Below, in pieces: positions 31,013-58,496 of a DNA stretch of 64,000 bases. The notes beneath the pieces are model-generated. The model was given only the letters and a program-made list of their open reading frames with translations, was not told where the DNA came from and ran no database searches. How positions within the stretch are numbered: the stretch's first letter is position 1; every line of letters starts with the position of its first letter. This DNA is from an uncultured delta proteobacterium (lineage in GTDB: Bacteria; Desulfobacterota; Syntrophia; Syntrophales; UBA2185). The stretch is from positions 32,001 to 96,000 of the forward strand of contig CAVSPA010000006.1 in assembly GCA_963729715.1 (NCBI GenBank), given 5' to 3'. The position numbers and the translations under genes are program-made.

Positions 31013-31031
31013 GAATGCGGAGATTGGAGGA

Positions 31032-32936: not shown

Positions 32937-33073
32937 TGAGAAAGTTCCGCTAAGGGTTCTTCGGGCCTCTGTCGGCGTCTTCTCATGAGTTGAAGAAAGG
33001 TATGAAAGATTCACATTTCACTATCCGGAAGGGGAAAGTCTGAAGTCACGCATTTAATCTACGGGGTGTATCT

Positions 33074-33946: not shown

Positions 33947-33947
33947 A

Positions 33948-38264: not shown

Positions 38265-38482
38265 TACGCCGTATGAAATTCCGGCGTGGAGACGGGAGCT
38301 CAGGAGCCGGCGAAAGAGCTTTATCTGGAGGATGCGTTTAGTATAGCGGCTTATAATTTCACATAGAATGAAAAAAAGGAGGTGAAATACCGGCGTGAAA
38401 TGGGACTCACTTTTGGTTCGTATCAAAGGGGAAAGAAATGGATATTCCAAATTGTAGAGAGAAGCTAAGGCAGGAGGAAGCT

Positions 38483-43123: not shown

Positions 43124-43827
43124 ATACCCATGAGCAGGCAAAAGAAATTCTGAGCCGGGCCAGAAAAGCCAAGAGGAATGTTTTGTTGGAGCCGGAAGCA
43201 AAAGCGCTTCTCGCCTCCTATGGCTGCGCCGTTACAAAGGATAAGGTGGCCGTCTCGGCTGACGAAGCAGCGGCATTCGCGAGCGAACTCGGATTCCCGG
43301 TTGTGGCCAAGATAGTCTCACCGCAGATCATACATAAAACCGATGCCAAGTGCGTGAAGGTGAATCTTGAAAATCCGGAGAAGGTCAAAGGGGCATTCAA
43401 GGAAATCATGGCCAATGCAAAGGCCTATGATGCAAACGCTAGGATAGAGGGGGTTTTGCTTTATCACATGGTGAGCGGGGGCGAAGAGGTCATAATAGGA
43501 CTGGCGACTGACCCCACCTTCGGGAAGGTGATCATGTTCGGATTGGGCGGAATCTGGGTGGAAGTCATGAAAGACGTCTCTTTCCGTGTTGTTCCCGTGA
43601 GCCGCGAGGACGCCCGGGACATGGTGGAAGAGATCAAGGGATATCCTCTTCTTACCGGGATCCGGGGAAAATCCGCGAAAGACATCGATGCCCTGTGCAA
43701 TATGCTGGTACAAGTTTCGAAATTGGCCGGGGCCAACTCAGAGATTGCGGAGATGGACCTCAATCCTATTTTCGTCATGGAGAAGGGGGCCATCATAGTC
43801 GATGCCCGGATTATCCTCAGTGAGTGA
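43120..43827 (+). CDS. NDP-forming acyl-CoA synthetase, beta (ATP-grasp) subunit
   Basis: GFPVVAKIVS, HKTD, FGLGG, DLNP and VDAR. Confidence 0.9.
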   Translation: MNTHEQAKEILSRARKAKRNVLLEPEAKALLASYGCAVTKDKVAVSADEAAAFASELGFPVVAKIVSPQIIHKTDAKCVKVNLENPEKVKGAFKEIMANAKAYDANARIEGVLLYHMVSGGEEVIIGLATDPTFGKVIMFGLGGIWVEVMKDVSFRVVPVSREDARDMVEEIKGYPLLTGIRGKSAKDIDALCNMLVQVSKLAGANSEIAEMDLNPIFVMEKGAIIVDARIILSE

Positions 43828-43914: not shown

Positions 43915-45315
43915 ATGAACCAAGGTCTGCGAGCGTACATAGAACACTTGGAAAGGGATATGCCGTCCCATGTCATCAGGATAAAGAAGGAGGTTTCACC
44001 TGAGTTTGAAATCCCAGCCATCCTGCAACAGGTGGAGTCGAGAAAAAAACAGCCTGTTTTGATTTTCGAGAAGGTGCGGAACCTAAACGGATCAATCTCA
44101 AAGCTGCCGGTGGTGATCAATCTTTTTGGCTCTAGGGAGAGGCTTGCAGATGCTATCGGGTCTACGGTTCAGAGGCTTCCCCTGGACTATATCGAGAAAG
44201 AGAAGCCTGTGCCTCCGGTCGTAATCGATAAGTCCAAAGCGATGGTCAAAGGCGTTATCCAGAAAGGCGATGATGTAGATTTGTATGAACTGCCGATCGT
44301 GACTCATCATGAAATGGATTTAGGGCCATACTTCACCAGCCCCAGCGTCTGGATAAAAGACCCGGAGACAGGATGGGTCAATTGCGCAATCATCAGGATC
44401 TATGTCGCAGGCCCCAAGAGCCTTGTCGTAAATTTCAACGCGGCGCGTCACACAAATTATGTCTTCCAGAAATACAAGGCCCTTAAACGCAACATTCCTA
44501 TAATCATTATGATTGGACATCATCCTGCTTTCTATATGGGGGCGCAAACGAAGATCTTCACGGATGAACCGCAGATAATCGGCGGTATCATAGGCGAACC
44601 CGTCGAGCTGACCCCTTCCGAAACTTGGGGGAAGGATATGCTCGTTCCAGCACAGGCGGAAATCGTCGTAGAAGCCGAAATGTCCTACGAGCAGGTTGAT
44701 ATCGAGGCGCCCTTCGGCGAATATACCCAGTATTACGGCGGCCAGAGGCTAAACCCCGTGACGTCGGTGAAAGCGATAACGCGAAGGAAAGACGCCTTCT
44801 ATCTCGACATCATGCCGGGCCATGCGGATCACCTCCTACTTGACGCACCGATGATCGAGGCTTATCTTTATAACAGAATCAGGGCGGTGGTGCCCGGGGT
44901 TGTGGGGGTACACGTACCTGTCTCAGGGACAGCGAGGCTCCACGCGTATATCCAGATCCGGAAGTCCAACGATGGAGAGCCTAAGACCGCCATAGCAACG
45001 GCCCTTAGCTCCGATTACCGGATAAAACATGTTGTTGTTGTGGATGATGACGTCAATATCTTTGATGATGAGCATGTGCTCTGGGCGATCGCTACACGAT
45101 CACAGTGGGACAAGGACCTTGTGGTCATCCCCGGCATGATGGGCACGAGGTTAGACCCGTCGGGCAATGACATCTTGACGACAAAGGGCGGGATTGATGC
45201 GACCAAGCCTGTCGATCCCCGCGGCTTTGCCAAAAGGCTCTGCATACCTGAATCGGTGATGTCCAGAATAAGGCTGGAGGATTTCCTGGAGCCGGATGTC
45301 CTGAGACAGTTTTAG
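43915..45315 (+). CDS. UbiD-family prFMN (de)carboxylase 2
   Basis: NCAIIR, EAPFGEYTQYY (canonical E-x4-E), VVDDDVNI, WAIATR and GIDATKP. Confidence 0.92.
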   Translation: MNQGLRAYIEHLERDMPSHVIRIKKEVSPEFEIPAILQQVESRKKQPVLIFEKVRNLNGSISKLPVVINLFGSRERLADAIGSTVQRLPLDYIEKEKPVPPVVIDKSKAMVKGVIQKGDDVDLYELPIVTHHEMDLGPYFTSPSVWIKDPETGWVNCAIIRIYVAGPKSLVVNFNAARHTNYVFQKYKALKRNIPIIIMIGHHPAFYMGAQTKIFTDEPQIIGGIIGEPVELTPSETWGKDMLVPAQAEIVVEAEMSYEQVDIEAPFGEYTQYYGGQRLNPVTSVKAITRRKDAFYLDIMPGHADHLLLDAPMIEAYLYNRIRAVVPGVVGVHVPVSGTARLHAYIQIRKSNDGEPKTAIATALSSDYRIKHVVVVDDDVNIFDDEHVLWAIATRSQWDKDLVVIPGMMGTRLDPSGNDILTTKGGIDATKPVDPRGFAKRLCIPESVMSRIRLEDFLEPDVLRQF

Positions 45316-45570: not shown

Positions 45571-47595
45571 ATGAAAAAGGTTATAACGAATTCACATTTC
45601 ATTTTGGAAAAATGTGTCGGCTGCAAAACATGCACCCATGTTTGCCCGACGAAGGCCTACACCCCATCCATAAGCCGGCCGCTGGAGAAGATCAAGGTCT
45701 CTCCTTGTACCGTTCAATGTCCGATTGGAAACGACATCGAAGGGTTTAATTATCTGATCGGACAGAAGAAATACCTTGAGGCTTATGATTTGCTCCGAGA
45801 GACAAACCCGCTTCCCGGTGCTACGGGCCGGGTCTGTCATCATCCCTGCGAAAAAGAGTGCAACCGGATCGAATTTGACGAACGCGTGTCGATCAAGTCC
45901 GTAGAGCGTTTTATTGCCGATACTGCCATGAAGATGGGCTATAAGCCGGTCAAGCCAAAGGTGGTCCGGATGGAGACTGTCGCCGTGGTGGGATCGGGAC
46001 CGGCAGGTCTCTCCTGCGCCTTCCACTTGTGCCGGATGGGTTACCGTGTCACTCTTTTCGAGGGTGCTGAGAAGGCAGGCGGCATGATGCGTTACGGTAT
46101 CCCTGAATATCGGCTGCCGAAGCAGGTCCTGGATAACGAGATCAGATATATCGAAGAGTCAGGGGTCAGTATCAAGACGAATACGCCTGTAAAGAACGCT
46201 GAAGAGCTCTTTAAGCAGGGATACAAGGCGGTCTTTGTCGCAACAGGTTCATGGGCAAGTCATAAGGTGGGCGTTCCTGGGGAAGAGACCAAGGGGGTCT
46301 TGTATTCGGTCGATTTCCTGAGGAGGGCGAACTCCGGGGAAAAGGTGAAAATGGGGGACTGCGTGGCGGTCATCGGCGGCGGCAATGTGGCCATCGATTC
46401 TGCCAGGCTTTCCCGGCGACTCGGGGCCAAGGAGGTTCACCTGATCTGCCTGGAGTCTTGCGACCTGACCTGCAAAGACAGGATGCCGGCCCAGGATGTG
46501 GAGATCGAACAGGCCGAAGGGGAAGGGGTTATCGTCCATCCCAACCTGGGGGTCAGAAAGATATTGGCCGATCGGGGCAAAATCGTGGGTTTGGAAACGA
46601 TCCAGTGTACGAGCGTCATTAATGAGCGGGGAAGATTCGCGCCGGAGTTTGGAGATGGTGCTGCCCCAACCATCGCGGCCGATATGGTGATCGTCGCGAT
46701 CGGTCAGAGACCGGACGATAAAGATTTTGTCGAGCTGGAAAGAAACCCCTCCAAAACAATCAAGATCGACGATATGACTTTCGAGACCAATATCAAAGGC
46801 ATTTTTGCCGGAGGGGATGCAACCAAGGGGGCAGGCACCGTATCCGAGGCAATCGGTGAGGGTAAAAAAGTGGCTTTGGCCATCCATCGTTTCCTCGAAA
46901 AGGGGGATGCGCGCCAGGAGATGGCCGCGCGCGAGGTCGTGACTTATGAAGAGATGAATCGCGATTACTTCTATCCGGCCGCGAGGAACGAGACCGGTCA
47001 TCTCGATCTGGGGCAGGCGGTCCGCTCTTTTGAAGAGGTCAGCCTCGGCTATCAGGAGGACCAGGCCGTGAACGAGGCACAAAGGTGTTTCGGATGCGCC
47101 GCACCGCCTACTTACACGTTCGCAGAGTGCAAAGGCTGTTTGAACTGCGTGGACCGATGTCCTGTATTCGCGATCACCATCGAACCGATACAGGAGCCTT
47201 ATACCGTAGCCGTCGACGCCAGCCAGTTCGATCAAGAAGAGATCATGCGCATCTGCAAGAAGACGCGTATCCATCCGAAGCAGATCATCTGTTACTGCAA
47301 CGGGACACGCGCTGAAGAGGTCGTTGCCGCCATTATGAAAGGAGCCAAAACGCCTGACGACATCTCCCGGATGACAGGAGCCCGCACCGGTTGCGCCGTC
47401 CTTTGCATCCAGTCGATCGTCAAACTTCTGGAGGTGTCCGGATTCCCGGTCACGGTGGGGAGCACACACCAGACCTATGGAAAGACCTTCACCCTGTGGG
47501 ATCTGGACCCCGAACTGAAGAAGAAGCATGAGGCACGGGGATATCATTTTGATGATGACATGAAACTAATCGAAACTGTTTTCGAGAGTAAGTGA
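45571..47595 (+). CDS. Fe-S flavoprotein: 2[4Fe-4S] ferredoxin, GltD/NfnB-like FAD/NAD(P) module and BFD-like [2Fe-2S] domain
   Basis: CVGCKTCTHVCP; CTVQCP and GRVCHHPCE; GSGPAG; GGGNVAID; AGGD; CKGCLNCVDRCP; ICYCN...TGCAVLC. Confidence 0.88.
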   Translation: MKKVITNSHFILEKCVGCKTCTHVCPTKAYTPSISRPLEKIKVSPCTVQCPIGNDIEGFNYLIGQKKYLEAYDLLRETNPLPGATGRVCHHPCEKECNRIEFDERVSIKSVERFIADTAMKMGYKPVKPKVVRMETVAVVGSGPAGLSCAFHLCRMGYRVTLFEGAEKAGGMMRYGIPEYRLPKQVLDNEIRYIEESGVSIKTNTPVKNAEELFKQGYKAVFVATGSWASHKVGVPGEETKGVLYSVDFLRRANSGEKVKMGDCVAVIGGGNVAIDSARLSRRLGAKEVHLICLESCDLTCKDRMPAQDVEIEQAEGEGVIVHPNLGVRKILADRGKIVGLETIQCTSVINERGRFAPEFGDGAAPTIAADMVIVAIGQRPDDKDFVELERNPSKTIKIDDMTFETNIKGIFAGGDATKGAGTVSEAIGEGKKVALAIHRFLEKGDARQEMAAREVVTYEEMNRDYFYPAARNETGHLDLGQAVRSFEEVSLGYQEDQAVNEAQRCFGCAAPPTYTFAECKGCLNCVDRCPVFAITIEPIQEPYTVAVDASQFDQEEIMRICKKTRIHPKQIICYCNGTRAEEVVAAIMKGAKTPDDISRMTGARTGCAVLCIQSIVKLLEVSGFPVTVGSTHQTYGKTFTLWDLDPELKKKHEARGYHFDDDMKLIETVFESK

Positions 47596-47605
47596 GGTAC
47601 ATGAG

Positions 47606-49066
47606 ATGGGAAAGACACTAAAACCTGCCGCTCCTAACCGATCACAATACTGCATTAATCCAGAGCTGTTGAAGATGAGAGCCGCTGATTTGCCAGGGAT
47701 GACCTCCCTGACCATTCGGGAACTCATTCCCTCTATGCCCAATCCCATTTTCCCGAGCGAGCATGGGGTTGAAGCGATCCGTCAGGCAACCCGGGATTCT
47801 TTGAACGGGGTTGATATGACCAAGATCAAGCCCGGGGATTCTGTCAACATCCTGGCATCGCACCATGGTTTCACGCTCTATGGCGGGACTGCCTACGCGG
47901 AGATGATCAAGGTGACACGCGATGTGATCATGGAGAGGACCGGTACCAAGGATATACGGCTGCGCGCCGGTGTGGGGCTGCGATTCAGGGAGACAGAGGA
48001 GTACATCAAGAAATTCGGCCTTGATCAGCATTTCAACGGGAAGGCCATGGGGATGACGCCCATTGATGAAGGTTTTCCCATCCAGACAGAGTTCGGCACC
48101 CTTTTTGGACTCAAGAGGGCCTATGATGCGAAGTGGGTTGTCCACGCCCACAACAATGATTTGAGGGAGCTCCACAACCATCGGATGATCAACCGGATCA
48201 TCAAGCCTTTTGCAATGTCGTATGCGAGGATGGAGACGCGTTCCACGTATCACCAGAACTTCGGCCCGAGATCGTCGAACATCATTCCCAGGGCGGTTTT
48301 CACGTCGGACTTCGTCCAGAGCAAGTTTGTCTTTTCCGTCATGCTGAACGTTGCACCCAGCGGGATCGCCGAGGTCAGCGCGAACAACGATCTGCTGAAG
48401 CAGGATGAATATATGGCGGTCGATACGCTGAGATGGTACGGAAAACTGCTTACCTTGCTGGAACACATCGACCAATGCAATGTGATCGTCGACGGTCCCA
48501 TGCCCATCGGGTACATGAGAGCGGGCGGGATCGTGTACGACAATTTTGCAGGGCTCTCTGTGGATGAGTTCGATCTGGATCAGGGATTCCCTCCGTTTTC
48601 ACGCTACACGGAGATGTATTTTGACGAACTGGGCCATCGTCTTATCGAGAATATCCCTCCTTTGAATCCAGCCGTCAAATGGATGATCAACAACTACTGT
48701 ATGAGCGGATTGCCATGCACCTTCTTTTCCCAGCATGTTCCAACCGTTGTGGTGGGTCGCGACATGGTGAACCATATGAATGCGGACCCGCAGAATCCCC
48801 AGTACATGAAATATGCGGTGACGACGGAAGGGCTGCAGGAGGCGGTCGACTTCGTGACGCGGGTCAGCGGTACCTCGAATATCCTCGTATTTGACGGTGC
48901 GGCAAACGGATTCAACATGACTGAGCCCCTGGCCGATCTGCTGAGGTCTAAGGGCTCGGGCATTGAAGAGAAGGTGGAGGGGGAGTTGCTTCCGAAGTGG
49001 TGTCGTCAGCGCGGTCTAAGTGCCGCGGTGCTGAAAGACAAACAGGTAAAGGTTAGCAGGCAGTAG
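47606..49066 (+). CDS. Divergent LarA/DUF2088-like protein, function unknown
   Basis: IKPGDSVNIL N-terminal strand; H190-x9-K200-x15-H216 spacing equals LarA H174/K184/H200 (manual alignment from memory). Confidence 0.55.
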   Translation: MGKTLKPAAPNRSQYCINPELLKMRAADLPGMTSLTIRELIPSMPNPIFPSEHGVEAIRQATRDSLNGVDMTKIKPGDSVNILASHHGFTLYGGTAYAEMIKVTRDVIMERTGTKDIRLRAGVGLRFRETEEYIKKFGLDQHFNGKAMGMTPIDEGFPIQTEFGTLFGLKRAYDAKWVVHAHNNDLRELHNHRMINRIIKPFAMSYARMETRSTYHQNFGPRSSNIIPRAVFTSDFVQSKFVFSVMLNVAPSGIAEVSANNDLLKQDEYMAVDTLRWYGKLLTLLEHIDQCNVIVDGPMPIGYMRAGGIVYDNFAGLSVDEFDLDQGFPPFSRYTEMYFDELGHRLIENIPPLNPAVKWMINNYCMSGLPCTFFSQHVPTVVVGRDMVNHMNADPQNPQYMKYAVTTEGLQEAVDFVTRVSGTSNILVFDGAANGFNMTEPLADLLRSKGSGIEEKVEGELLPKWCRQRGLSAAVLKDKQVKVSRQ

Positions 49067-49233
49067 GCTCTGCATCCTGAATAGATCGACTCAAGACAGC
49101 GACTTGAGAGGGATGCGCCAGCGGGGCATCCAATCCCTATTGAGGGGAGATATTTCACTGCCGGCGGTTTTTCGAGAAGGGGATTCCTGCCCGGCCATCA
49201 GGCAGGCTCAAATAAGAAATGGAGTGGAAGCGA

Positions 49234-49782
49234 ATGTACGAAATCAGGTTTCATGGAAGAGGAGGACAGGGCGCGGTCGTAGCGTCGACGGTTCTCGCCT
49301 CCGCCTTCTTCAAGGAAAAGAAATTCGTTCAGGCTTTCCCGAACTTCGGGGCTGAGAGAAGAGGTGCGCCCGTAGTCGCCTTTACGCGCGTGAGCGACCA
49401 TGAGATCAGGGAGAGATTCGGAATCTATGAGCCGGACTGCCTGATCATTCTTGACTCAAGCCTGACCAGAAGGAAGGGGATTGTCCAGGGTCTGAAGGAA
49501 GGCCACTGGATCATCATCAACAGCGATAAGAAACCGGAGGACTATGTTTTTCTGGGCCCCTATCTCGTGGCGACACTGAATGCAAACACCATCGCACAGG
49601 AGCACGGCCTGGGGAGCTCATCCGTTCCGATCGTCAATACGACGATCCTCGGTGCGTTCTCAAGGGCAACCGGGATGGTCGCTATAGAATCGATCATGGA
49701 TGCCGTGCGCGAGAATGTACCTTCACATCCCGAGGATAATGCCAAGGCCGCCCGGGAGGCTTATGAGAAGGTGGTTTTTTAA
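49234..49782 (+). CDS. 2-oxoacid:ferredoxin oxidoreductase gamma subunit (set 1)
   Basis: EIRFHGRGGQG, FGAERRGAPV and IVNTTILGA. Confidence 0.92.
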   Translation: MYEIRFHGRGGQGAVVASTVLASAFFKEKKFVQAFPNFGAERRGAPVVAFTRVSDHEIRERFGIYEPDCLIILDSSLTRRKGIVQGLKEGHWIIINSDKKPEDYVFLGPYLVATLNANTIAQEHGLGSSSVPIVNTTILGAFSRATGMVAIESIMDAVRENVPSHPEDNAKAAREAYEKVVF

Positions 49783-49814
49783 GTAGAGTAATCTTGCATC
49801 AAGAGGTTGATTAA

Positions 49815-50099
49815 ATGAAAAAGCGATATAGCCTGAAATCCTTAGATACGTTACCGATCACAGCCATCTCCTTCCTCACCACAGAGGGAAACGAAACCGG
49901 CGAGTGGCGCTCACAAAGACCAATCCTCGATCGGGAAAAGTGTAATCGCTGCGGCCTTTGCTGGATGTACTGTCCGGATAACGCGATCCATGCGGAGGGC
50001 GGTGCATTTCAAATCTCCTACACCTATTGCAAGGGTTGCGGAATCTGCGCGAAAGAGTGTCCCAGAGGAGCCATTTTGATTGAGAAGGAAGAAAGATGA
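49815..50099 (+). CDS. 2-oxoacid:ferredoxin oxidoreductase delta subunit (set 1)
   Basis: TGEWR, CNRCGLCWMYCP and CKGCGICAKECP. Confidence 0.92.
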   Translation: MKKRYSLKSLDTLPITAISFLTTEGNETGEWRSQRPILDREKCNRCGLCWMYCPDNAIHAEGGAFQISYTYCKGCGICAKECPRGAILIEKEER

Positions 50100-51241
50100 A
50101 GAAAGTTATTTCTGCCAACCAGGCCGTCTCGTATGCTGTTCTGGCCGCTAAGGCCCAAGTCATTGCAGCGTATCCCATCACCCCTCAGTCTTCCATAGTG
50201 GAGATGTTGTCAGGGTTCTGCGCAACGGGAGCCCTTCAGGCCAAGTTCATCAACGTGGAGTCGGAGCATTCCGCCATGGCCGCGTGCATCTCCGCGTCAG
50301 TGATGGGGGCCAGAACATTCACGGCAACAAGCTCCCAGGGGCTGGCGTTGATGCATGAGTTGCTTCATTATGCCTCAGGGTTGCGGCTCCCGATAGTCAT
50401 GGCAAACGTCAACAGGGCGCTGGCAAGCCCTTTCAATCTGAAGGCGGATCTGAGCGACAGCCTCTCCCAGCGGGATACGGGTTGGCTGCAGTTCTACTGT
50501 GAGAGCGGCCAGGAGGTCTTTGACACAATCATTCAGTCCTACAAGATATCGGAAAAATTACTGCTTCCTGTTATGGTTAATCTGGAAGGTTTCATCCTTT
50601 CTCACACCTACGAGATTGTCGACCTTCCGGAGCAGAGCCAGATCGACCTCTTCCTCCCGCCCGCGCCCGCCCGGGAGTGCCTTGACGTTGATAATCCCTG
50701 CATGTTCGGGTCAACTACGGATTACTATATCAATTTCCGGTACAAGATGCATCAGGACATGGAGGAGGCCAAGACCTTATGCAGTGAAATCGATGCCGAA
50801 TTTAAGAAGGCGTTTGGCCGGGATTATGGTCTCGTCTCAACCTATCTCTGTGAAGATGCCGACCTTATATTGGTTACAGCAGGAACAATCGCCGGCACAT
50901 GCCGCGTCGTTGCCGACCGCTGCCGGGCCAGGGGAATGAAGGTGGGCGTCCTCCGGATCCGCATGGTTCGTCCTTTCCCTGGAAAGCAGATCTGTGAGCC
51001 GCTTCGAAAAGCAAAGAAGGTGGCTGTGATCGACCGTGACTTCTCTCCCGGATGCGGAGGGATTTTTGCACAGGAGGTCAAGGCCTCCCTCCAGGGGATC
51101 AATTGCGGTCTGCCTGTTTATGAGTTTATCGCCGGCTTGGGAGGCAAGGATGTGACGGATAAAGACATCGAATTAATCATTGAACAAACGCATAATATGC
51201 CGAACCGAGGAGAAAGCACATGGATAGGCCTGCTCAAATAA
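50096..51241 (+). CDS. 2-oxoacid:ferredoxin oxidoreductase alpha subunit (set 1)
   Basis: AYPITPQ, ESEHSA, TATSSQGL and GLGGKD. Confidence 0.92.
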   Translation: MKKVISANQAVSYAVLAAKAQVIAAYPITPQSSIVEMLSGFCATGALQAKFINVESEHSAMAACISASVMGARTFTATSSQGLALMHELLHYASGLRLPIVMANVNRALASPFNLKADLSDSLSQRDTGWLQFYCESGQEVFDTIIQSYKISEKLLLPVMVNLEGFILSHTYEIVDLPEQSQIDLFLPPAPARECLDVDNPCMFGSTTDYYINFRYKMHQDMEEAKTLCSEIDAEFKKAFGRDYGLVSTYLCEDADLILVTAGTIAGTCRVVADRCRARGMKVGVLRIRMVRPFPGKQICEPLRKAKKVAVIDRDFSPGCGGIFAQEVKASLQGINCGLPVYEFIAGLGGKDVTDKDIELIIEQTHNMPNRGESTWIGLLK

Positions 51242-52110
51242 AATTCCCCATACCCGAAGAGGAGCTTGTTTACTCAGGACATACGGCCTGCCCCGGCTGT
51301 GGAGCCGCGCTGGCTATGAAATATGTATTGAAGGGACTGGGTCCGAGAACCATTATTGTCATTCCGCCCTCGTGCATGGGGACCATTGCCGCGGGTTTTC
51401 CTTTTTCTTCACTCAAGATTCCCGTCCTCAGGATTCCTTTTGAATCGACGGCCATAACGGCTTCAGGAATCCGGGCGGCCCTGGATGTCATGGGCAAGGA
51501 AGACATACATGTCCTCGCGTGGGCCGGCGACGGAGGCACGTTTGACATCGGCCTTCAGGCCCTGTCGGGATCGGCCGAGAGAAATGACAATATCATATAC
51601 GTCTGTTATGATAACGAAGGTTATATGAATACGGGGATTCAGCGGAGTTCTTCAACCCCTGCGGGCGCCTGGACGACTACCACTCCCGCACCCTTCGTGA
51701 AAGATACGCCCAAGAAGGACATCGTCCGCATCATGGCCGCCCACAACATCCCGTATATTGCGACGGCCTCCATCGGATATCCCGCCGACCTGATCAGGAA
51801 GGTGAAGAAAGCGAAGGAGATAGGGGGCACGAAGTTCATATTGATCTTTTCCCCCTGCCCAACGGGGTGGCGCTATTCTCCGGAGATGACGATAAGGCTT
51901 GCCAAGCTGGCCACCGAGACAGGAATATTTCCCCTTTATGAAATTGAAAACGGGGAGAAGTACGCCCTGAGTTCCAAACGGTCGGAAAAGCCGCTCCAGG
52001 ATTATTTTGCCCTCCAGGGACGCTTTCGCAATCTCACGAAAGAGAACCTCCAGCAGTTTGAAGAAAGAGTGGAGAAAGAACGGGAATATCTGAAGCGTCT
52101 GGCAGGATAG
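51220..52110 (+). CDS. 2-oxoacid:ferredoxin oxidoreductase beta (TPP) subunit (set 1)
   Basis: ACPGCG, AGDGGTFDIG...DNEGYMNTG and PCPTGW. Confidence 0.92.
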   Translation: MDRPAQIKFPIPEEELVYSGHTACPGCGAALAMKYVLKGLGPRTIIVIPPSCMGTIAAGFPFSSLKIPVLRIPFESTAITASGIRAALDVMGKEDIHVLAWAGDGGTFDIGLQALSGSAERNDNIIYVCYDNEGYMNTGIQRSSSTPAGAWTTTTPAPFVKDTPKKDIVRIMAAHNIPYIATASIGYPADLIRKVKKAKEIGGTKFILIFSPCPTGWRYSPEMTIRLAKLATETGIFPLYEIENGEKYALSSKRSEKPLQDYFALQGRFRNLTKENLQQFEERVEKEREYLKRLAG

Positions 52111-52290: not shown

Positions 52291-53121
52291 ATGCTACCTG
52301 AACGGGATATCCGTGATATCATCTTCGCCGGCATCCGGGAAAAGAAGTACATTGCCCACATCTCCGCCCAGACAGAGGGCGTCCTTTCCGGAATCGAATG
52401 GCTGAAAAAGGCCTGCAAGAATCTGGGAATCCATTTGAAGAAATGCAAGAAAAACGGGGCGAGGGTCAGACTGGAGGAGGTCATCGCCGTTCTCACGGGA
52501 AGCGCCAAGCAGCTGGCCGCGGGTGAAGAGCAGCTTATCGGCTGGATCTCAAAAGCCTCCGGTATTGCCACTGCCGCCCGGAAGGCAAAAAAGGCTGCCG
52601 GAAAGAACCTGAAGGTGGTATGCGGGGCATGGAAGAAGATGCCGCTGCCGATCAAAGATCTGGTCCGGCAGGCGATCGCCGACGGAGGCATTCTGTACCG
52701 CATGGCAGATATACCCTTCCTTTACCTGGACAAGAACTACGTCAAGACATTGGGCGGGGTCGCAAAGACGATGCAATCCGTGAAAGGCCTGAAGGGACAC
52801 ACCCTGGTGATACAGCTGAAAGCGGTGGGACATAACCTCCTCCGGGAAGCAATCGTCGCAGCAGAGGGCGGCGGCAACATCATCATGATCGATACAGGCA
52901 GGAAAGAGGATATCGTAAAGATCGATTCCGGGTTGCGGGCAAGGGGTCTGAGAGACCGCGTGCAAATCGCTTTTGCAGGAAACATCGGAATCGGCGATCT
53001 CCAGGAACTAAAGAAGCTGCCGGTAGAGATCGTTGACATCGGACAGGCCGTTGTCGATGCGCCGCTTCTCGACATGAGAATGGATATTACGGCAGAGACG
53101 GGGGAGAAGATTGGAGCTTGA
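52291..53121 (+). CDS. Divergent NadC/ModD-like type II phosphoribosyltransferase
   Basis: EGVLSG, SGIATA and IIMIDTG fold motifs; quinolinate-binding motifs altered (GAWKKMP, YLDKNY). Confidence 0.75.
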   Translation: MLPERDIRDIIFAGIREKKYIAHISAQTEGVLSGIEWLKKACKNLGIHLKKCKKNGARVRLEEVIAVLTGSAKQLAAGEEQLIGWISKASGIATAARKAKKAAGKNLKVVCGAWKKMPLPIKDLVRQAIADGGILYRMADIPFLYLDKNYVKTLGGVAKTMQSVKGLKGHTLVIQLKAVGHNLLREAIVAAEGGGNIIMIDTGRKEDIVKIDSGLRARGLRDRVQIAFAGNIGIGDLQELKKLPVEIVDIGQAVVDAPLLDMRMDITAETGEKIGA

Positions 53122-54001
53122 ACTTTTTGAAAAGACGGAGATCTGGATAAGTCCCATCCATATCGTGGATGTCGACCTGGGATTGATCGCAGAGAAGTTT
53201 GCCGGGATTCTGCACCTCGACAAGAAGGAGATCATGGTCGTCGATGTGCGTGAGGAACTCATCACCCTTGACGTCCTGAAGAAATCCGTCAGGGCCGAGG
53301 ATATTATCGGCAAGAAGGACGCCCTGCTCAAGGCGCTGGCGGCGATCCCCGGAGTCAGTCTCACCCCCGAGACAAGTCTCCACTCCGATGGCATCCTCGG
53401 ATTGATTGCCGTCGAAGATCAAGCGATGGCGGGTGAAATCCTAGGAGGGATGGCGCGGATGCAGCGCGAAATCTCGGAGCGGATACGGAAGAGGGCAATA
53501 GTCTTTCCATCCGGGTTCGAGGTCCGGAGGGGCATGATTCAGGACACCAACAGCCCCTACATCACAGGCCGGCTGACGAAGGAAGGATACAGCGTCACAG
53601 TAGGCGATACGCTCGAAGACGATCTGGAGAGTATTGTCCCGGTACTTCGCCGGACCCTGAGCGAGGGCTATGGACTGATCATCACGACCGGCGGAGTAGG
53701 GGCAGAGGATAAGGACAGGATGGTTGAGGCCCTTCTGAGGATCGACCCTTCGGCGTCCACGCCGTACATAATCCATTACGAAAAAGGAAAAGGGCGTCAC
53801 GAAAAAGACGGGGTCAGGATCGGGGTCGCTTACCTGCATCCCTCTTACGTCATTGCCCTGCCGGGACCGCACGAGGAAGTAAAGGCCGGTATGGATGTCA
53901 TCATCGAGGGATTAAAGGGGGGAATGGGAAAAGAGGATATTGCTTCCGCCCTTGCAAACAAATATGTCGGTCGCCTGAAGCGGCTTCACCATTTGAAGTG
54001 A
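53111..54001 (+). CDS. CinA-N/COG1058-like molybdopterin-binding-fold protein with N-terminal extension
   Basis: GFEVRRGMIQDTN, TTGGVG and LPGPHEE; overlaps the upstream gene by 11 nt. Confidence 0.75.
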   Translation: MELELFEKTEIWISPIHIVDVDLGLIAEKFAGILHLDKKEIMVVDVREELITLDVLKKSVRAEDIIGKKDALLKALAAIPGVSLTPETSLHSDGILGLIAVEDQAMAGEILGGMARMQREISERIRKRAIVFPSGFEVRRGMIQDTNSPYITGRLTKEGYSVTVGDTLEDDLESIVPVLRRTLSEGYGLIITTGGVGAEDKDRMVEALLRIDPSASTPYIIHYEKGKGRHEKDGVRIGVAYLHPSYVIALPGPHEEVKAGMDVIIEGLKGGMGKEDIASALANKYVGRLKRLHHLK

Positions 54002-54094
54002 CACTGAAGATCAGTAACAACTCCACCCCTGCGCAAAGTGCCGGGCCTGATGAAGAGATCAGTTTAAGTCAATAAAGTGAGGGGAAGAAAGAAG

Positions 54095-54655
54095 ATGCTT
54101 GAAATCCGCTTTCATGGTCGCGGAGGCGGGGGTACCGTCGTGCTGGCCACCTTACTCGCCAAGGCTTTTTTTCAGGCCGGTTACCAGGTCCAGAGCTTCC
54201 CCTTTTTCGGTGTTGAACGGCGAGGGGCCCCGGTAGAGGCGTATCTCCGTCTCGCGAGCAAGAAGATTTTAGCGAGAACCAGTGTGACCACGCCGGATCA
54301 TGTAGTTGTTCAGGATCAGAGCCTCATTCAAGACATCGGCGTCATGCAAGGACTCAAGCCGGGTGGTTGGATTTTGCTTAACTGCCCCTTACACCCTTCC
54401 GATATGAGCCTCTTTACAAACTACAAGGTTGCCATTGTGGATGCAACCAGCCTTGCGCTCAAAAACAGGATAGGAAGCAGGACGCACCCCATTGTCAATA
54501 CGGCCATGATAGGTGCTTTTGCGCGCATGATGGAGGCACCGCCGATGGATACCGTCATTGCAGCGATAAGGAAAGAAGTGCCGTCCGACCCTGATAGAAA
54601 TGTCGCCGCTGCAGAAGAGGCGTATCGTGAAGTCCGTTTATTACAGGAAACATAA
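54095..54655 (+). CDS. 2-oxoacid:acceptor oxidoreductase gamma subunit (set 2)
   Basis: EIRFHGRGGGG and FGVERRGAPV. Confidence 0.92.
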   Translation: MLEIRFHGRGGGGTVVLATLLAKAFFQAGYQVQSFPFFGVERRGAPVEAYLRLASKKILARTSVTTPDHVVVQDQSLIQDIGVMQGLKPGGWILLNCPLHPSDMSLFTNYKVAIVDATSLALKNRIGSRTHPIVNTAMIGAFARMMEAPPMDTVIAAIRKEVPSDPDRNVAAAEEAYREVRLLQET

Positions 54656-54668
54656 ATAAGGCGAAGGC

Positions 54669-56414
54669 ATGAAGGTCGCAATAATACCAAAACCGTTTGT
54701 AGCCATAACTTATGAAACGACGGAAAGCAACAAGACGGGCTCTTGGCGCTTTCTCAAACCGCGTTACCAGGATAAGACATCGCCCTGCAGCACCGGTTGT
54801 CCGGCCGGCGAAGATATCGGCATGATTGAGATGCTCGCAAAGCAGGGATTGTTCAAGGAGGCGTGGGAAGCGATCCTCCGGGAAAATCCTTTACCGGGCG
54901 TATGCGGGCGCGTCTGCTTTCACCCTTGCGAGAGCGCTTGCAACAGAAAGGATTTCGATTCGCCCATTGCCATTCACACCCTTGAACGGTTTCTGGCCGA
55001 TGCGGCTGCCGGTTGCGATCTTACGACAACACTGGAAAAGCTCCCCCAAAAGAAACAAAGGATAGCCATCATCGGCGCTGGTCCGGCGGGACTTTCCGCC
55101 GCATGGTTTCTGTCAGTGCTTGGTTATCCCTGTGATATTTTTGAGGCACTTCCTGAAGCAGGTGGAATCTTACGCTGGGGGATACCGGAGTATCGTTTAC
55201 CCGCGGCAGTTCTTCAATCCGAGATTGCCCGGGTTGAAGGCTTGGGAGTGCGCATGTATACGAATAAAGCCGTGGCGTCTGATACATTTGATGAACTTAG
55301 GAAAAGTTACGGCGCCGTTTTTCTCGGCTGCGGCCATGCGCATGGCACGCCGCTCGGATTGACGGGAGAGACCCCGGAAACTGTTGAGGACGGCCTGGAT
55401 TTTTTGAGAAGAGTGAGGCAGGGTGAAATGCCTTTATGTGACGGTTTCTCTGTTGTCATCGGGGGCGGCAACACGGCTGTTGACGTTGCCAGAACCATCA
55501 CCAGGTTTGGCGGCATTGCGGCCATCTTGTACCGCAGGCGCCGTCAGGATATGCCGGCATTCGGAGATGAAATAGAGATGGCGCTCGAGGAAGGTGTGGA
55601 ACTGGAAGAGCTTGTAGCCCCGTCAGCTATTGAACATCATAACGGCCGGCTCAGACTGCTTTTGCGGAAAATGAAAATCAAAGGTCAGGATAAAGATGGT
55701 CGTGGACGGATAGTATTCGACGGGAAAAAGACCGTTAAGAAAGTTGTCGATCATATATTTGCGGCCACGGGCGCCAACGCGGCTGAGTCCTGGCATAGCC
55801 CTCCTTTGGCGCAACGGGAAGTTATCGGCTTCAATAACTGTGTTCTATTGTTGGAGGACAGCGGCGCGCCTGTAATCTACGGCGGGGATCTGACCAATGA
55901 AACAAAAAATGTCGCACAGGCCATAGCCTCCGGCAAGCAGGCAGCGATGGTACTGGATACCTATTTCGAAAGAGGAATCGATGAGATTAAACCCCGGCTT
56001 GAGGCATGCATGGTCGGAAACGGGCCGGCACTTTCCATGGAAGCATATCTCGGGGAAGCGCGCGGAGGCCGCAGTTCCCATATTGTCCAATACGGAGAAA
56101 TCAATACAGACTATTTCCATAGTGAAGATAGGGCGGCTCAACTCCGCCTTTCCGCGGAAGATCGCAGCCGCTCGTTTAATGAAATCGACTTGGGCATACC
56201 CGCTGAGGCGGCCGTCCGGGAGGCCGGGCGCTGCTTCAATTGCGGCCTGTGTGACCAGTGTGACAACTGTTATGTATTTTGCCCGGATGCTGCCGTTATC
56301 AGAAGTAAGAACATGGAAGACCGGCATATCAACTATGATTACTGCAAAGGATGCGGCGTATGCGCTACGGAGTGTCCTCGCTATGCCGTAATCATGGGTG
56401 AGGAGAGACTATGA
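54669..56414 (+). CDS. Delta subunit fused with a GltD-like FAD/NAD(P) module (set 2)
   Basis: N-terminal TGSWR, GRVCFHPCE, GAGPAG, GGGNTAVD, YRRRR and C-terminal CDQCDNCYVFCP/CKGCGVCATECP. Confidence 0.88.
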   Translation: MKVAIIPKPFVAITYETTESNKTGSWRFLKPRYQDKTSPCSTGCPAGEDIGMIEMLAKQGLFKEAWEAILRENPLPGVCGRVCFHPCESACNRKDFDSPIAIHTLERFLADAAAGCDLTTTLEKLPQKKQRIAIIGAGPAGLSAAWFLSVLGYPCDIFEALPEAGGILRWGIPEYRLPAAVLQSEIARVEGLGVRMYTNKAVASDTFDELRKSYGAVFLGCGHAHGTPLGLTGETPETVEDGLDFLRRVRQGEMPLCDGFSVVIGGGNTAVDVARTITRFGGIAAILYRRRRQDMPAFGDEIEMALEEGVELEELVAPSAIEHHNGRLRLLLRKMKIKGQDKDGRGRIVFDGKKTVKKVVDHIFAATGANAAESWHSPPLAQREVIGFNNCVLLLEDSGAPVIYGGDLTNETKNVAQAIASGKQAAMVLDTYFERGIDEIKPRLEACMVGNGPALSMEAYLGEARGGRSSHIVQYGEINTDYFHSEDRAAQLRLSAEDRSRSFNEIDLGIPAEAAVREAGRCFNCGLCDQCDNCYVFCPDAAVIRSKNMEDRHINYDYCKGCGVCATECPRYAVIMGEERL

Positions 56415-57586
56415 AGCAGGTGATGGAAGGCAACTCCGCCGTTGCGGAGGCGGTCCGGCTGGCTAGGGTTCAGGTAATCTCTGCATATCCTATCACACCC
56501 CAATCGCATATCGTGGAGGTTCTGTCGGATTACTGTGCCAGCGGCAAGATGGATGCCCGTTACTTAAGGGTTGAGAGCGAGCACTCCTGTCTTGCGAGCC
56601 TTGTCGGAGCCGCATGCGGCGGCGTCAGGACCTTTACGGCGACCTCGTCAGCCGGCCTCGCCTATATGCACGAAATGCTGCATTGGACGGCAGGATCACG
56701 CCTGCCAATCGTTATGGCAGAGGTGAACCGGGCAGTAGGCGCACCCTGGAATATCTGGTCAGACCAAACCGACAGCCTGTCCCAGCGCGATACGGGCTGG
56801 ATGCAGTTCTACTGTGAAGACGGGCAGGAGGTTTTTGACACAACCCTCCAGGCATTCCGTTTGGCGGAATGGGTTAACCTTCCCGTCATGGTCGTCACGG
56901 AGGGTTTCCTACTCTCACATACCTATGAACCAGTGGATATTCCCGAGCAGGAAGAAGTTGATCGTTTTCTTCCTCCCTACAATCCCGCGTTCAGTGTCGA
57001 TACCAAGAATCCGTTTACATTTAATTCCATCGCCTCTCCTTCAATCTATATGGAAATTCGTCATGACAACGCAGCGGCCATGGATCAGGTGCTGGAGCGC
57101 TTTGATGACGTTGAGAAGGAATTTGAAACCTTATTTAACCGCAGATATGGCGCGATCGAGGCGGTCAATTGTGACGATGCAGAGATTATTCTCGTCACAT
57201 CAGGAACTATTACGAGCACCGGCCGTCTGCTTCTAGAAGACCTGCGAGACAGGGGTGAGAAAGTCGGTCTCCTGAAAATGAAAATGTTTCGGCCATTCCC
57301 TGTGGAATTGGTTTGCGAGGCGCTTAAGCCTGCAAAAAAGGTTGCTGTTATTGACCGGAATTTTTCATCCGGCGCAGGGGGGATATTCCTGCAGGAAGTT
57401 CGGGCGGCGCTCTGCAATAGAGAGGACCGTCCCCTTGTCTTTGGTTATGTTGTTGGCCTCGGTGGAAGGGACGTCACGAAGGCTGTTCTCGAAGAGATCT
57501 ATGAGATGACCAAGAACAACGATATCCCATCGGATAAGAGCATTTGGATAGGACTGAAAGAGGTGAAGCATGCGATTGGACGCTGA
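56411..57586 (+). CDS. 2-oxoacid:acceptor oxidoreductase alpha subunit (set 2)
   Basis: AYPITPQ, ESEHS and GLGGRD. Confidence 0.92.
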   Translation: MKQVMEGNSAVAEAVRLARVQVISAYPITPQSHIVEVLSDYCASGKMDARYLRVESEHSCLASLVGAACGGVRTFTATSSAGLAYMHEMLHWTAGSRLPIVMAEVNRAVGAPWNIWSDQTDSLSQRDTGWMQFYCEDGQEVFDTTLQAFRLAEWVNLPVMVVTEGFLLSHTYEPVDIPEQEEVDRFLPPYNPAFSVDTKNPFTFNSIASPSIYMEIRHDNAAAMDQVLERFDDVEKEFETLFNRRYGAIEAVNCDDAEIILVTSGTITSTGRLLLEDLRDRGEKVGLLKMKMFRPFPVELVCEALKPAKKVAVIDRNFSSGAGGIFLQEVRAALCNREDRPLVFGYVVGLGGRDVTKAVLEEIYEMTKNNDIPSDKSIWIGLKEVKHAIGR

Positions 57587-58496
57587 CGATCGTGAATTCA
57601 TGTGCTCAGGGCATGCGGCTTGTCCGGGCTGCGGCGCAGTTATTGCTCTGCGCATTTTTACAAAGGCCATGGGAGAAAATACCATCCTGGTTATTCCGGC
57701 CAGTTGCACAGGTGTCATCGTCGGTGTTTACCCCCAGTCTGTCATGAGAATTCCCGTGGTCCACGCCCCCATGCCGGCCGGCGCCTCCGTGGCTTCAGGG
57801 CTGCGTGCAGCCCTTGATATGAGGCATGACACGGATACCACGGTTGTTGCATGGGCCGGTGACGGCGGCACCTTCGATATCGGCTTTCAGGCCCTGAGCG
57901 GCGCCGTCGAAAGGAACGAGGATTTTATTTATGTCTGCTATGACAATGAAGCCTATATGAATACCGGCATCCAGCGCAGCTCTTCAACGCCGTATGGGGC
58001 GTGGACGACTACCACACCGGGACAAGATTGGAAAAAACTGCGGAAGAAGAATATCGTTGAAGCCTTGGTGGCGCACCGGATCCCCTATGTGGCGACGGCA
58101 AATATAGCATTTCCGGAGGACCTTGTTCGAAAGGTGAAGAAAGCCAAAGCCGTCAGGGGTTCGAGGTTTTTGCATATCTTCGCGAGCTGCCCCCCGGGAT
58201 GGCGCATCCCCTCCGAGATATCAGTAAAAACGGCCCGGATGGCTGTTCAGACAAATATCTTTCCTCTATACGAGGTAGAAGACGGCGTCCGCTACACCAT
58301 CAATTACAAGGACAGGCAGCGCCCTGTGCAGGACTATTTCGGGGTTCAGGGACGCTTCAGTCATCTGACTGCTGAAGACTTCGATCAGATCCAAAAAATG
58401 GTTGAAAAAGATTGGGCATTGTTACTGAGAAAGGCCGGGGAGCAAGCCGCCGACGCATGCATCCAATCATCGAGCGCTCACGAGGTGAAAGTATAA
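57570..58496 (+). CDS. 2-oxoacid:acceptor oxidoreductase beta subunit (set 2)
   Basis: ACPGCG and AGDGGTFDIG...DNEAYMNTG. Confidence 0.92.
   Translation: MRLDADDREFMCSGHAACPGCGAVIALRIFTKAMGENTILVIPASCTGVIVGVYPQSVMRIPVVHAPMPAGASVASGLRAALDMRHDTDTTVVAWAGDGGTFDIGFQALSGAVERNEDFIYVCYDNEAYMNTGIQRSSSTPYGAWTTTTPGQDWKKLRKKNIVEALVAHRIPYVATANIAFPEDLVRKVKKAKAVRGSRFLHIFASCPPGWRIPSEISVKTARMAVQTNIFPLYEVEDGVRYTINYKDRQRPVQDYFGVQGRFSHLTAEDFDQIQKMVEKDWALLLRKAGEQAADACIQSSSAHEVKV

Follow-up and report, generated by a model that had tools for sequence, protein, structure and literature searches.

The window analysed here, a 64,000-nucleotide stretch of DNA from an uncultured delta proteobacterium, carries two overlapping genes set between two OFOR gene sets; these and all other features of the window described below lie on the plus strand. 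The first gene encodes a NadC-like protein (PRT; 52291..53121, 276 aa, ATG start), which we examined with Pfam and NCBIfam profiles, profile matches to QPRTases in the PDB and a residue table. The second encodes its MoCF-fold partner (MCF; 53111..54001, 296 aa, TTG start), examined with Pfam, alignments, a fold search and a residue table; the two open reading frames share 11 nt. Upstream are the gene for LARL (47606..49066), a LarA-fold protein and putative nickel-pincer oxidoreductase recognized from an AlphaFold model, fold searches and conservation; a GltD-like flavoprotein fused to an FD module (45571..47595; BFD-like [2Fe-2S] at 572-621); and a UbiD akin to HmfF, a decarboxylase of furan-2,5-dicarboxylate (43915..45315; best PDB match 6H6V). 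A second UbiD (40197..41666), whose nearest solved relative is a phthaloyl-CoA decarboxylase (222 bits to 8OZ5), is a lineage-specific feeder. Pfam and NCBIfam identify the remaining neighbours. We propose that the 2-oxo acid product is oxidised by OFOR set 1 (gamma, delta, alpha and beta; 49219..52110) and that an ADP-forming acyl-CoA synthetase (alpha and beta; 41699..43827) catalyses the ATP-yielding final step; in OFOR set 2 (54077..58496) the delta subunit is fused to a GltD-like flavoprotein. An LpdD-like protein (a weak match, E 2e-4) and UbiX (30620..31601) are the prFMN supply for the UbiDs, outside the core cassette, while genes for a GntR regulator, a branched-chain-type ABC transporter and an AMP-forming CoA ligase (32154..39805) make up a local uptake and activation module. 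Counts in a promoter and terminator scan were not above those in shuffles.

PRT matches PF02749 and PF01729 above cut-off, the two-domain profile of type II PRTases, and reaches about 95 bits against solved QPRTases in a PDB profile search. It falls short of the nadC family (TIGR00078, 91 bits, cut-off 198.4) and of modD (TIGR01334, 26.8 bits, cut-off 178.85), and molybdate-transport genes, the context of ModD, are not among the recurring neighbours. The initial annotation had set PRT apart from NadC by four motifs, CGAWKKMP (111-118), GGILYR (132-137), YLDKNY (145-150) and IQLK (174-177). These, like the motif quoted for MCF, are conserved across the family and not chance: K115, K116, D147, K148, Q175 and D201 are kept in all 62 aligned PRT sequences. 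Among the quinolinate ligands R105', R139, R162, K172 and H175 (residues taken from PMC4065032), only R162 is kept in the residue table (60/62 sequences). R105' is replaced by Glu or Asp and K172 by Asp in 62/62, H175 by Tyr or Phe, and R139 by Trp and E201 by Gln invariantly or nearly so; four of the five residues shown to be essential in QAPRTase are changed. PRT no longer has the residues that hold the C2-carboxylate in NadC; equivalents of K140, R162 and D222 are retained and invariant K88, K116 and R126 are gained. A canonical nadC does exist elsewhere in the host genome, between genes named valS and birA from their translations, and PRT, unlike NadC, is always accompanied by MCF, LARL and FD. 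We propose that PRT is a NadC-fold protein with a remodelled base/PPi site that acts on a nickel-pincer nucleotide.

MCF consists of an N-terminal domain of about 100 aa (beta-alpha-beta-beta-alpha-beta), for which an Atlas search gave no informative match, followed by a MoCF-fold domain (Z 13-16 in a fold search covering this domain and not the N-terminal one). Its only Pfam match is PF00994, at residues 134-265; the four-domain chain of MoeA is absent. The sequence GFEVRRGMIQDTN at 135-147 contains the motif read earlier as CinA-N, with G135, E137, D145 and N147 kept in 57/57 aligned sequences. However, GxExxxGxxxD[TS]N also occurs in an alignment of gephyrin E/MoeA-type proteins, so the motif does not single out COG1058, and scores against CinA/COG1058 family HMMs are low (26 bits against a cut-off of 243 for cinA_nterm; 45.5 against 293). 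E137, D170 and D202, the acidic triad of MoeA and COG1058 proteins as defined in PMC3680494, are invariant (57/57), as are G194 and G195. MCF thus shares fold, motif and triad with COG1058/CinA and with MoeA/Cnx1E domain III, and differs from these in an invariant GRH loop (228-230), in the extra N-terminal domain with its invariant K8, E10, D45 and D54, in its second motif, GGVGAEDKD instead of GG[LI]GPxxxD, and in having neither a PncC nor a FAD-synthase domain. Substrates of COG1058 enzymes include ADP-ribose and, with weak activity, NaAD; FAD can also be hydrolysed (PMC3680494). We propose that MCF is a dinucleotide pyrophosphatase.

LARL has no Pfam or NCBIfam match, its profile finds only weak, unrelated matches among PDB sequences, and profile-profile comparison with the local larA group is weak. 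Its whole-chain fold is nevertheless that of the LarA superfamily: the AlphaFold model (pLDDT 90.9) matches 9EIA with Z 18.5 (rmsd 3.8 Å over 341 aligned residues; next non-LarA Z 6.8), and Foldseek finds the LarA fold with E 7e-9. K200 and H216, present in 59/59 sequences and spaced by 16 as are K183 and H199 of LarA, are from this spacing and the fold the probable pincer tether Lys and Ni-ligand His. The catalytic His pair of LarA is not kept, as there is no conserved His at 119-133 (the H108 position), and H190, at the H174 position, is His in 42/59 and Tyr in 17/59. The ribose Asp and phosphate Arg of LarA (D70-x-x-R73) are apparently replaced by S85-x-H87-G88, in a weak profile alignment of 1.3% probability. 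LARL also differs from LarA in having a fixed Fe-S partner, implying net redox: FD, usually a free protein of about 205 aa with 2x[4Fe-4S] + [2Fe-2S] directly upstream of LARL, adjoins it in 70/73 cases. Complex predictions for LARL with PRT and MCF gave 0.43, 0.12 and 0.31, against a mark of 0.32, and carry no weight here. We propose that LARL is a nickel-pincer oxidoreductase. The initial annotation had noticed neither the Fe-S partner nor a catabolic pathway.

Together FD, LARL, PRT and MCF form a cassette found in many anaerobic bacteria and archaea. All four genes are present in 49/49 loci of at least 15 kb and in 71/80 loci overall, although kin and redundant contigs inflate every count of loci or genomes given here. 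Genomics and fold comparison show the obligate co-occurrence of the four genes, the LarA-type fold of LARL with its tether Lys and Ni-ligand His, the links to larBCE and the presence of downstream genes for 2-oxo acids; the chemistry of the cassette is inferred. In a phylum sample of 251 genomes, LARL occurs in 10 and PRT in 9, all nine among LARL's ten; the tenth, a 520-contig assembly, has MCF. The suspected tie of the pair to the LarA-like gene is thereby borne out. PRT and MCF are functionally coupled, being adjacent in 61/78 loci and fused in 1/78, with fusions known in both orders. Genomes with 2, 3, 3 and 4 LARL genes each hold a single PRT, and have 1, 1, 2 and 1 MCF genes, respectively, and LARL paralogues occur in other catabolic contexts as well. 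The supposed tie to a decarboxylase island, by contrast, did not hold (UbiD in 14/80 cassette loci, UbiX in 4/80), and neither Moco genes, which the initial annotation would have taken as a refutation, nor MoeA/MoaB-like neighbours stand beside the pair in the 80 loci. A literature search, with subscription journals and bioRxiv supplements outside its scope, found no mention of the cassette genes or their combination, nor is the combination mentioned in the searched text of pincer-enzyme papers.

Genes for nickel-pincer cofactor synthesis are linked to the cassette in several lineages, where larBCE stands in the operon. Fifteen of the 80 loci contain larB/C/E, 13 of them without a racemase-type larA, and in two genomes with such loci there is no LarA-family match anywhere; LarB lies inside 11/80 loci. 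All four pseudomonad loci (from three isolates) carry larBCE, compared with LarB in 39/300 other genomes. Genome-level co-occurrence with LarB (42/50) was dropped as evidence, the phylum baseline (222/251) being no lower. NphT and an NPAD-dependent ornithine cyclodeaminase demonstrate intermolecular hydride transfer by pincer cofactors and the existence of such cofactors with an altered nucleotide tail (PMC13524815); the folds of these enzymes (an aldo-keto reductase fold in NphT) are unlike LARL, and no ferredoxin or phosphoribosyltransferase is named in the text consulted, unlike the cassette.

Several neighbours point to furans. The window's UbiD at 43915 scores 279 bits to 6H6V (PtHmfF), against 144 for its best non-HmfF match, has retained the His corresponding to H297 of HmfF, and is about 37% identical to Firmicutes-type HmfF copies. 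Six loci carry one UbiD group, two tested members of which score 567-572 bits to PtHmfF; the furan-selecting His is kept and a hydratase is present in 6/6. In the reverse direction, a cassette gene was found in 17/25 loci of at least 8 kb around close HmfF-type genes (8/25 lack it) versus 0/12 around distant ones. One of the distant loci, when annotated, held hmfABCDE-type genes instead of the cassette; near HmfF-type genes, one of these gene sets replaces the other. Overall, 32/80 cassette loci contain a hydratase-family gene, one each, and 17/80 have it with an aldolase and an acylating dehydrogenase; 48/80 have no hydratase. The two hydratases that were tested match DmpE best, but their scores, 310 and 336, stay under its cut-off of 409, as do their decarboxylase scores of 261 and 288 under a cut-off of 351. 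No CoA-ligase-cluster gene occurs in the 32 hydratase loci, and locus L068 additionally holds AOR and Fe-ADH. Taken together, an HmfF-type decarboxylase, a 2-oxopentenoate hydratase and an aldolase or OFOR as neighbours suggest the conversion of furoate + 2[H] to 2-oxopent-4-enoate. Because the host genome has no match to the hydratase, the window's LARL falls in a sister clade, and its UbiD is only distantly HmfF-like, the window's substrate may differ. Picolinate and other C6 substrates are disfavoured by the one hydratase-family gene per hydratase locus and by the missing C2-carboxylate ligands of PRT; an isophthalate-type CoA route is consistent with the second UbiD only.

We suggest, with a probability of roughly 0.4, that the cassette encodes a ferredoxin-driven nickel-pincer ring-opening reductase whose cofactor is serviced by PRT and MCF. 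FD and LARL would be the catalytic half, in which a nickel-pincer enzyme is connected with Fe-S clusters, and PRT and MCF the accessory half. FD-LARL would put two electrons into free 2-furoate or a substituted furoate, opening the C5-O bond without CoA to give 2-hydroxypenta-2,4-dienoate (2-oxopent-4-enoate; C5H4O3 + 2H = C5H6O3). On chemical reasoning, addition of a nickel hydride across C4=C5 and then elimination of the beta-oxygen would achieve this. We consider this reductive opening probable for the hydratase clade, where hydratase, aldolase and acylating dehydrogenase would take 2-oxopent-4-enoate to pyruvate and acetyl-CoA; for the window's clade the odds are even, and there the product would pass through OFOR to acyl-CoA and ATP, and the GltD-FD fusion would carry the electrons from OFOR back. 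We slightly favour the cofactor over the substrate as the target of PRT and MCF: MCF may cut an adenylated pincer or precursor down to the mononucleotide, and PRT may bind a 3-carboxy-pyridine nucleotide lacking a C2-carboxylate and edit or remove its ribose-phosphate tail, so that LARL would receive a pincer form not used by racemases. The boldest version, that the pair strips or re-tails the finished nickel-pincer nucleotide and that the Fe-S-fed nickel hydride of a Lys-tethered, low-potential pincer cleaves the ring C-O bond in furoate that is not activated (paralogues doing likewise to other O-, S- or N-heteroaromatic acids), is unlikely and offered as speculation. Like the aerobic hmfABCDE pathway (Trudgill), the proposed route would begin with HmfF and presumably use the same substrate. 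The aerobic pathway, however, ligates CoA and reaches 2-oxoglutarate after a Mo-dependent hydroxylation at C5 (PMC3223595), where the proposed one would open the ring reductively without CoA. It resembles lower meta-cleavage (DmpE/MhpD, MhpE, MhpF) in its hydratase-family, aldolase and acylating dehydrogenase genes, and differs in that the recurring neighbours include no dioxygenase or separate 4-oxalocrotonate decarboxylase and the hosts are mostly anaerobes.

Rather unlikely is a reading with the same cassette and pathway in which PRT and MCF just supply or salvage an ordinary cofactor, PRT making NaMN or P2CMN from nicotinate or pyridine-3,5-dicarboxylate plus PRPP and MCF recycling dinucleotides or ADP-ribose. 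Such a role would predict, for a nicotinate-type base, a retained R162 with the C2-carboxylate ligands lost; having one PRT copy in each genome agrees with a shared supply, the ADP-ribose and weak NaAD hydrolysis of COG1058 enzymes fits recycling, and at locus L047 PRT directly precedes larC-larB-larE. Yet it leaves unexplained that PRT tracks LARL (9/251) and not LarB (222/251), as well as the near-invariant Trp and Gln at R139 and E201, and a NaAD-cleaving hydrolase would oppose the supply of substrate to LarB. Less probable again is a LARL that performs no net reduction, either hydrating furoate towards 2-keto-3-deoxypentonate or oxidising a 2-hydroxy acid to the 2-oxo acid with electrons passed to FD, PRT and MCF being helpers or subunits. 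LarA chemistry removes a hydride from C2 of 2-hydroxy acids, a divergent larA lies in 10/80 loci, and the host genome's second LARL has a 2-hydroxyacid dehydrogenase gene nearby; against this, the His107/108 position is unconserved in LARL and the second His is Tyr in 17/59, the furoate delivered by HmfF-type genes requires +2H to become 2-oxopent-4-enoate, and pure hydration would need no always-adjacent three-cluster Fe-S protein.

The initial annotation had offered three roles for the pair. Phosphoribosylation of the substrate is improbable: PRT would N-phosphoribosylate an N-heteroaromatic such as pyrrole-2-carboxylate or a pyridine carboxylate, FD-LARL would reduce and open it, and the ribose phosphate would be freed by MCF or by a protein of M24/creatinase fold (in 22/80 loci) that lacks the metal ligands usual for this fold. 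The phosphoribosyl-site residues K115, D201 and G251 are kept, PtHmfF tolerates pyrrole-2-carboxylate, and this substrate + 2H + H2O likewise yields 2-oxopent-4-enoate, but the linked UbiDs have the furan-selecting His and not the Asn of pyrrole decarboxylase, all 62 PRT sequences have acidic residues at the positions that bind a ring C2-carboxylate, and a single PRT accompanies up to four LARL paralogues in differing contexts. Of the two other roles, construction of a pyridinium-dicarboxylate mononucleotide by the pair with a UbiD, bypassing LarB, and supply of FMN or dimethylallyl monophosphate to UbiX, we give very little credence to either. The window does hold two UbiDs, UbiX and an LpdD-like gene, and COG1058 enzymes can hydrolyse FAD; however, UbiD is missing from 66/80 loci and UbiX from 76/80, and 11/12 distant-HmfF loci of at least 8 kb have UbiX while 0/12 have the pair, so the co-occurrence profile refutes supply to UbiX. 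With larB/C/E within cassette loci and larEBC in the host genome, a LarB bypass is not needed; the idea of a pyridine-carboxylate cofactor as substrate survives. It is equally hard to credit that the pair are unremarkable paralogues, PRT an additional NadC or ModD and its neighbour MCF a CinA or Moco protein. Their Pfam domains and the automatic annotation (nicotinate-nucleotide pyrophosphorylase) would say so, and an over-cut-off nadC is absent from two of five genomes tested; the scores below the nadC, modD and cinA cut-offs, the changed essential residues, the true nadC of the host and the lack of MoeA/MoaB-like neighbours in the 80 loci argue otherwise.

A reductive furan-ring route appears to be undescribed; a 2011 review names two Desulfovibrio strains, and no others, as degrading furfural anaerobically (PMC3223595). 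The cassette makes anaerobic furan breakdown testable in cultured organisms (Sporomusa aerivorans DSM 13326, Fonticella tunisiensis DSM 24455 and Oscillibacter ruminantium GH1), and draws attention to a family whose present annotation is nicotinate-nucleotide pyrophosphorylase. It may offer a CoA-free, Moco-free removal of furan inhibitors in lignocellulose fermentations and digesters, and dietary furans may be processed by it, as three contigs with human-gut metagenome in their titles (L186, L189 and L191) carry HmfF-type genes that adjoin LARL. If our main reading is true, nickel-pincer enzymes would gain ferredoxin-coupled net redox in addition to racemisation and hydride shuttling, and the cassette may reveal a further cofactor form; if the tail-editing reading is also true, it would combine a new cofactor form with biological heteroarene ring opening that uses neither CoA nor oxygen.

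The two overlapping genes that the initial annotation described between two OFOR sets are indeed present, with every motif it had quoted and an overlap of 11 nt. PRT (52291-53121, 276 aa) is nadC-like and contains both QRPTase domains in a Pfam search, and MCF (53111-54001, 296 aa) carries PF00994 at residues 134-265. PRT scores 91 bits against the nadC model (cut-off 198) and 27 bits against the modD model (cut-off 179), and so was assigned to neither NadC nor ModD; MCF falls far under the cut-offs of the CinA models and agrees with COG1058 only in part. A separate canonical nadC with DTRKT, GGGHNHR, LIKDNH and EIEV is found on contig C6 of the source genome. PRT homologues are numerous (1266 of 4292 candidates at E <=1e-10), a tally that may include ordinary NadC.

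A GTDB scan gave 135 relatives, of which the best 80 were analysed as loci, the cassette genes being detected with HMMs made from the loci themselves. These best 80 loci come from deltaproteobacteria, Firmicutes, Acidobacteria, Chloroflexi, Actinomycetota, a few pseudomonads and several archaeal groups; they contain PRT in 80, MCF in 78, LARL (a LarA-fold protein; window 47606-49066) in 76 and FD (an Fe-S protein) in 73 cases, and all four genes in 71 (49 of 49 where the locus is at least 15 kb). In 61 of the same best 80, PRT sits directly beside MCF; it is fused to MCF in one and lies apart from it in 16, and FD lies immediately upstream of LARL in 70 of 73; ten of 14 long matches scanned are PRT-MCF fusions, in either order. 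The tie to a LarA-like gene suggested earlier was borne out by reverse profiling of 251 genomes of the phylum: 10 carried LARL, and the 9 that carried PRT all belonged to those 10, the remaining genome being a 520-contig assembly with LARL at a contig end and MCF present. The proposed tie to a decarboxylase island fared otherwise, as 14 of the best 80 loci have UbiD and 4 have UbiX, and the island is therefore regarded as a local feeder; the initial annotation thus stands as an observation, and only in part as an interpretation. Since kin are not independent, these counts are descriptions and not statistics. That the four-gene cassette is real as a unit is nearly certain, and its parts all have known folds. 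We found no description of the combination in the open-access literature searched, pincer papers included.

Several loci vary this arrangement. The source genome has a second FD-LARL pair (G000:C3:367469-369555; L086:10512-12556) with no PRT or MCF in its vicinity; its neighbours are genes for a beta-keto acid cleavage enzyme, a DASS transporter and a 2-hydroxyacid dehydrogenase. A group II intron reverse transcriptase (L086:13498-14790) directly follows this LARL, and another ORF of equal length (430 aa; L086:17220-18512) lies 2.4 kb beyond. Loci L118-L120 (G303:C141, G185:C52) have three or two tandem FD-LARL pairs around a single PRT and a single MCF, and also hold a divergent UbiD, AOR and a linalool dehydratase/isomerase-like gene. 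Actinomycetota loci (L013, L015, L019, L021, L063) form a separate LARL clade with altered gene order, some with hydrogenase/complex-I-like neighbours.

LARL (486 aa) had no match in Pfam, NCBIfam or PDB profile searches, and some LARL clusters carry the automatic name "LarA-like" in the Atlas; it is LarA-like by structure, its model (pLDDT 90.9) finding its match in LarA structures alone, with Z 18.5 and an rmsd of 3.8 A across 341 residues, against Z 6.8 for the next fold. LarA is described as tethering its cofactor at K183 and binding nickel through H199 (PMC11851776); K200 and H216 of LARL, equally spaced by 16, are invariant throughout an alignment of the window protein with 58 of the 72 full-length locus copies. 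Unlike LarA, LARL does not retain the racemase His pair, and it fell outside the racemase family. LARL is very likely dependent on the nickel-pincer cofactor. FD combines two [4Fe-4S] motifs with a BFD-like [2Fe-2S] domain, and is fused to a GltD-like flavoprotein in the window and in locus L068; because a racemase has no need of an electron carrier, we infer that FD-LARL performs net redox.

Genes for making the pincer accompany some cassettes. larB, larC or larE lie inside 15 of the best 80 loci, racemase-type larA being absent from 13 of these, and in two of five genomes tested, those of L050 and L052, larBCE is part of the locus and a search for the LarA family gave no match. All four pseudomonad loci (two from the same isolate) contain larBCE, and in that phylum LarB was detected in 39 of 300 further genomes. 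Cassette and larBCE occur together in Oleiphilaceae, Burkholderia and Erythrobacter (L047, L052, L064, L074), which are usually aerobic; the Erythrobacter locus has a flavin monooxygenase nearby. The source genome carries larE-larB-larC on contig C7. Of the 50 cassette genomes checked, for which 50 of the 80 loci were submitted, 42 have LarB, but this has no weight as evidence, because LarB is present in 222 of the 251 phylum genomes sampled; the latter frequency far exceeds what the cassette explains, and the pincer probably has other frequent clients in this phylum. A divergent LarA-family subgroup lies beside the cassette at L079:5487-6779 and in nine other loci among the best 80, with a best NCBIfam score of 183 versus 500 bits. 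Its His200 is invariant, but the positions 26 and 16 residues ahead of it, occupied in LarA by the catalytic His and the tether Lys, hold Gln and Gly; the protein is possibly a second pincer enzyme of the pathway.

The neighbours point to the product. A hydratase-family gene, one per locus, occurs in 32 of the best 80 loci, and the two tested score highest as 2-oxopent-4-enoate hydratase, under its cut-off; 4-hydroxy-2-oxovalerate aldolase and acylating acetaldehyde dehydrogenase each occur in 17 of the best 80, and no CoA-ligase cluster gene was found in the 32 hydratase loci. IclR (25), an M24-fold protein (22) and a BenE transporter (16) also recur among the best 80. The M24/creatinase-fold protein (L062:10438-11547 and 21 other loci), whose consensus lacks the usual prolidase metal ligands, is perhaps a furoyl-amide hydrolase or tautomerase. 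Elsewhere among the loci the neighbours include an OFOR, a 2-oxo-acid dehydrogenase complex, an HpaI-type aldolase or an HpaB/AbfD-family gene, each of which would suit a 2-oxo acid as the product.

Six of the best 80 loci have UbiDs of one group (mutual identity 53-84%; one split in two pieces), all with a hydratase, and the two that were tested reach 567-572 bits against 6H6V, the P. thermopropionicum HmfF (PMC8988006), an FDCA/furoate enzyme (PMC8252502). All six have the His that is reported to make HmfF select furans; pyrrole-2-carboxylate decarboxylase carries Asn at this position (PMC7976604). A reverse search from one of them gave 65 metagenome loci, many on near-duplicate contigs; among loci of at least 8 kb, LARL, PRT or MCF occurs in 17 of 25 at UbiD identity of at least 55% (all three in 12) and in 0 of 12 below 55%. 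The single distant locus that was annotated has Mo-dehydrogenase subunits, CoA ligase and enoyl-CoA hydratase, the aerobic hmf set (PMC3223595). Loci L144-L146, L148, L149, L154 and L158, whose UbiDs are close HmfF-type ones, had no cassette gene, and the cassette may sit elsewhere in those genomes; the L148 UbiD is flanked by transporters and gamma-glutamyltranspeptidase. Short contigs titled human-gut metagenome (L186, L189, L191) have an HmfF-type UbiD with LARL, two of them also with FD. We propose that the cassette would convert furoate and two hydrogens to 2-oxopent-4-enoate, and such a reductive opening is probable for the hydratase clade. If so, L068 (transporter, AOR, Fe-ADH, HmfF-type UbiD, PRT, MCF, hydratase, dehydrogenase, aldolase, GltD-FD, LARL) would encode all the steps that lead from furan aldehydes down to pyruvate plus acetyl-CoA.

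As to PRT, an alignment of the window protein with 61 of the best 80 locus copies shows invariant equivalents of QAPRTase K140 and D222, and Q in place of E201. QAPRTase is described as gripping the C2-carboxylate with R105' and K172 and the C3-carboxylate with R162 and R139 (PMC4065032). R105' is replaced by E or D and K172 by D in 62 of 62 sequences, and R139 by W in 61; R162 is retained in 60. These changes indicate a base other than quinolinate, probably without a C2-carboxylate; judged from the residues, a pyridine of the nicotinate type or one substituted at positions 3 and 5, as the pincer is, would fit. MCF, aligned as the window protein plus 56 of 71 copies, retains E137, D170 and D202, matching an acidic triad shared by COG1058 and MoeA (PMC3680494); its C-domain has the Mog/MoaB/CinA fold, and the second COG1058 motif is absent. 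Triad and fold make a pyrophosphatase role likelier for MCF than an adenylyltransferase one.

PRT is single-copy in all nine PRT-positive genomes of the 251 (one relative outside this sample has two), and four of the nine have 2, 3, 3 and 4 LARL copies, with FD upstream of each copy examined. That a single PRT serves genomes with several LARL paralogues, which stand in differing contexts, suggests a shared cofactor service, specific to LARL because PRT tracks LARL and not LarB. LarA is reported to bind the cofactor's ribose and phosphate through D70 and R73 (PMC12611868), where LARL, in a weak alignment, has S-x-H-G, and an adenylated pincer is known (PMC13524815). Together these favour PRT and MCF editing the nucleotide tail of the pincer, which we hold slightly better than even; that they only supply or salvage the ordinary cofactor comes next and is rather unlikely. 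Cassette, pincer, furoate opening and cofactor role taken together are our best explanation, with a probability of roughly 0.4.

The window itself is a variant. No hydratase was found genome-wide, its LARL falls in a sister clade (FastTree, midpoint-rooted), its HmfF-like UbiD is more distant from HmfF with the His retained, and its second UbiD is nearest to phthaloyl-CoA decarboxylase. An LpdD-like gene lies upstream of ubiX (30620-31012; weak PDB match), and L161 has another member of this Pfam family close to an HmfF-type UbiD. The window also has two OFORs and an ADP-forming synthetase; in this organism GltD-FD-LARL would reduce and OFOR would oxidise, and the two would balance and give ATP.
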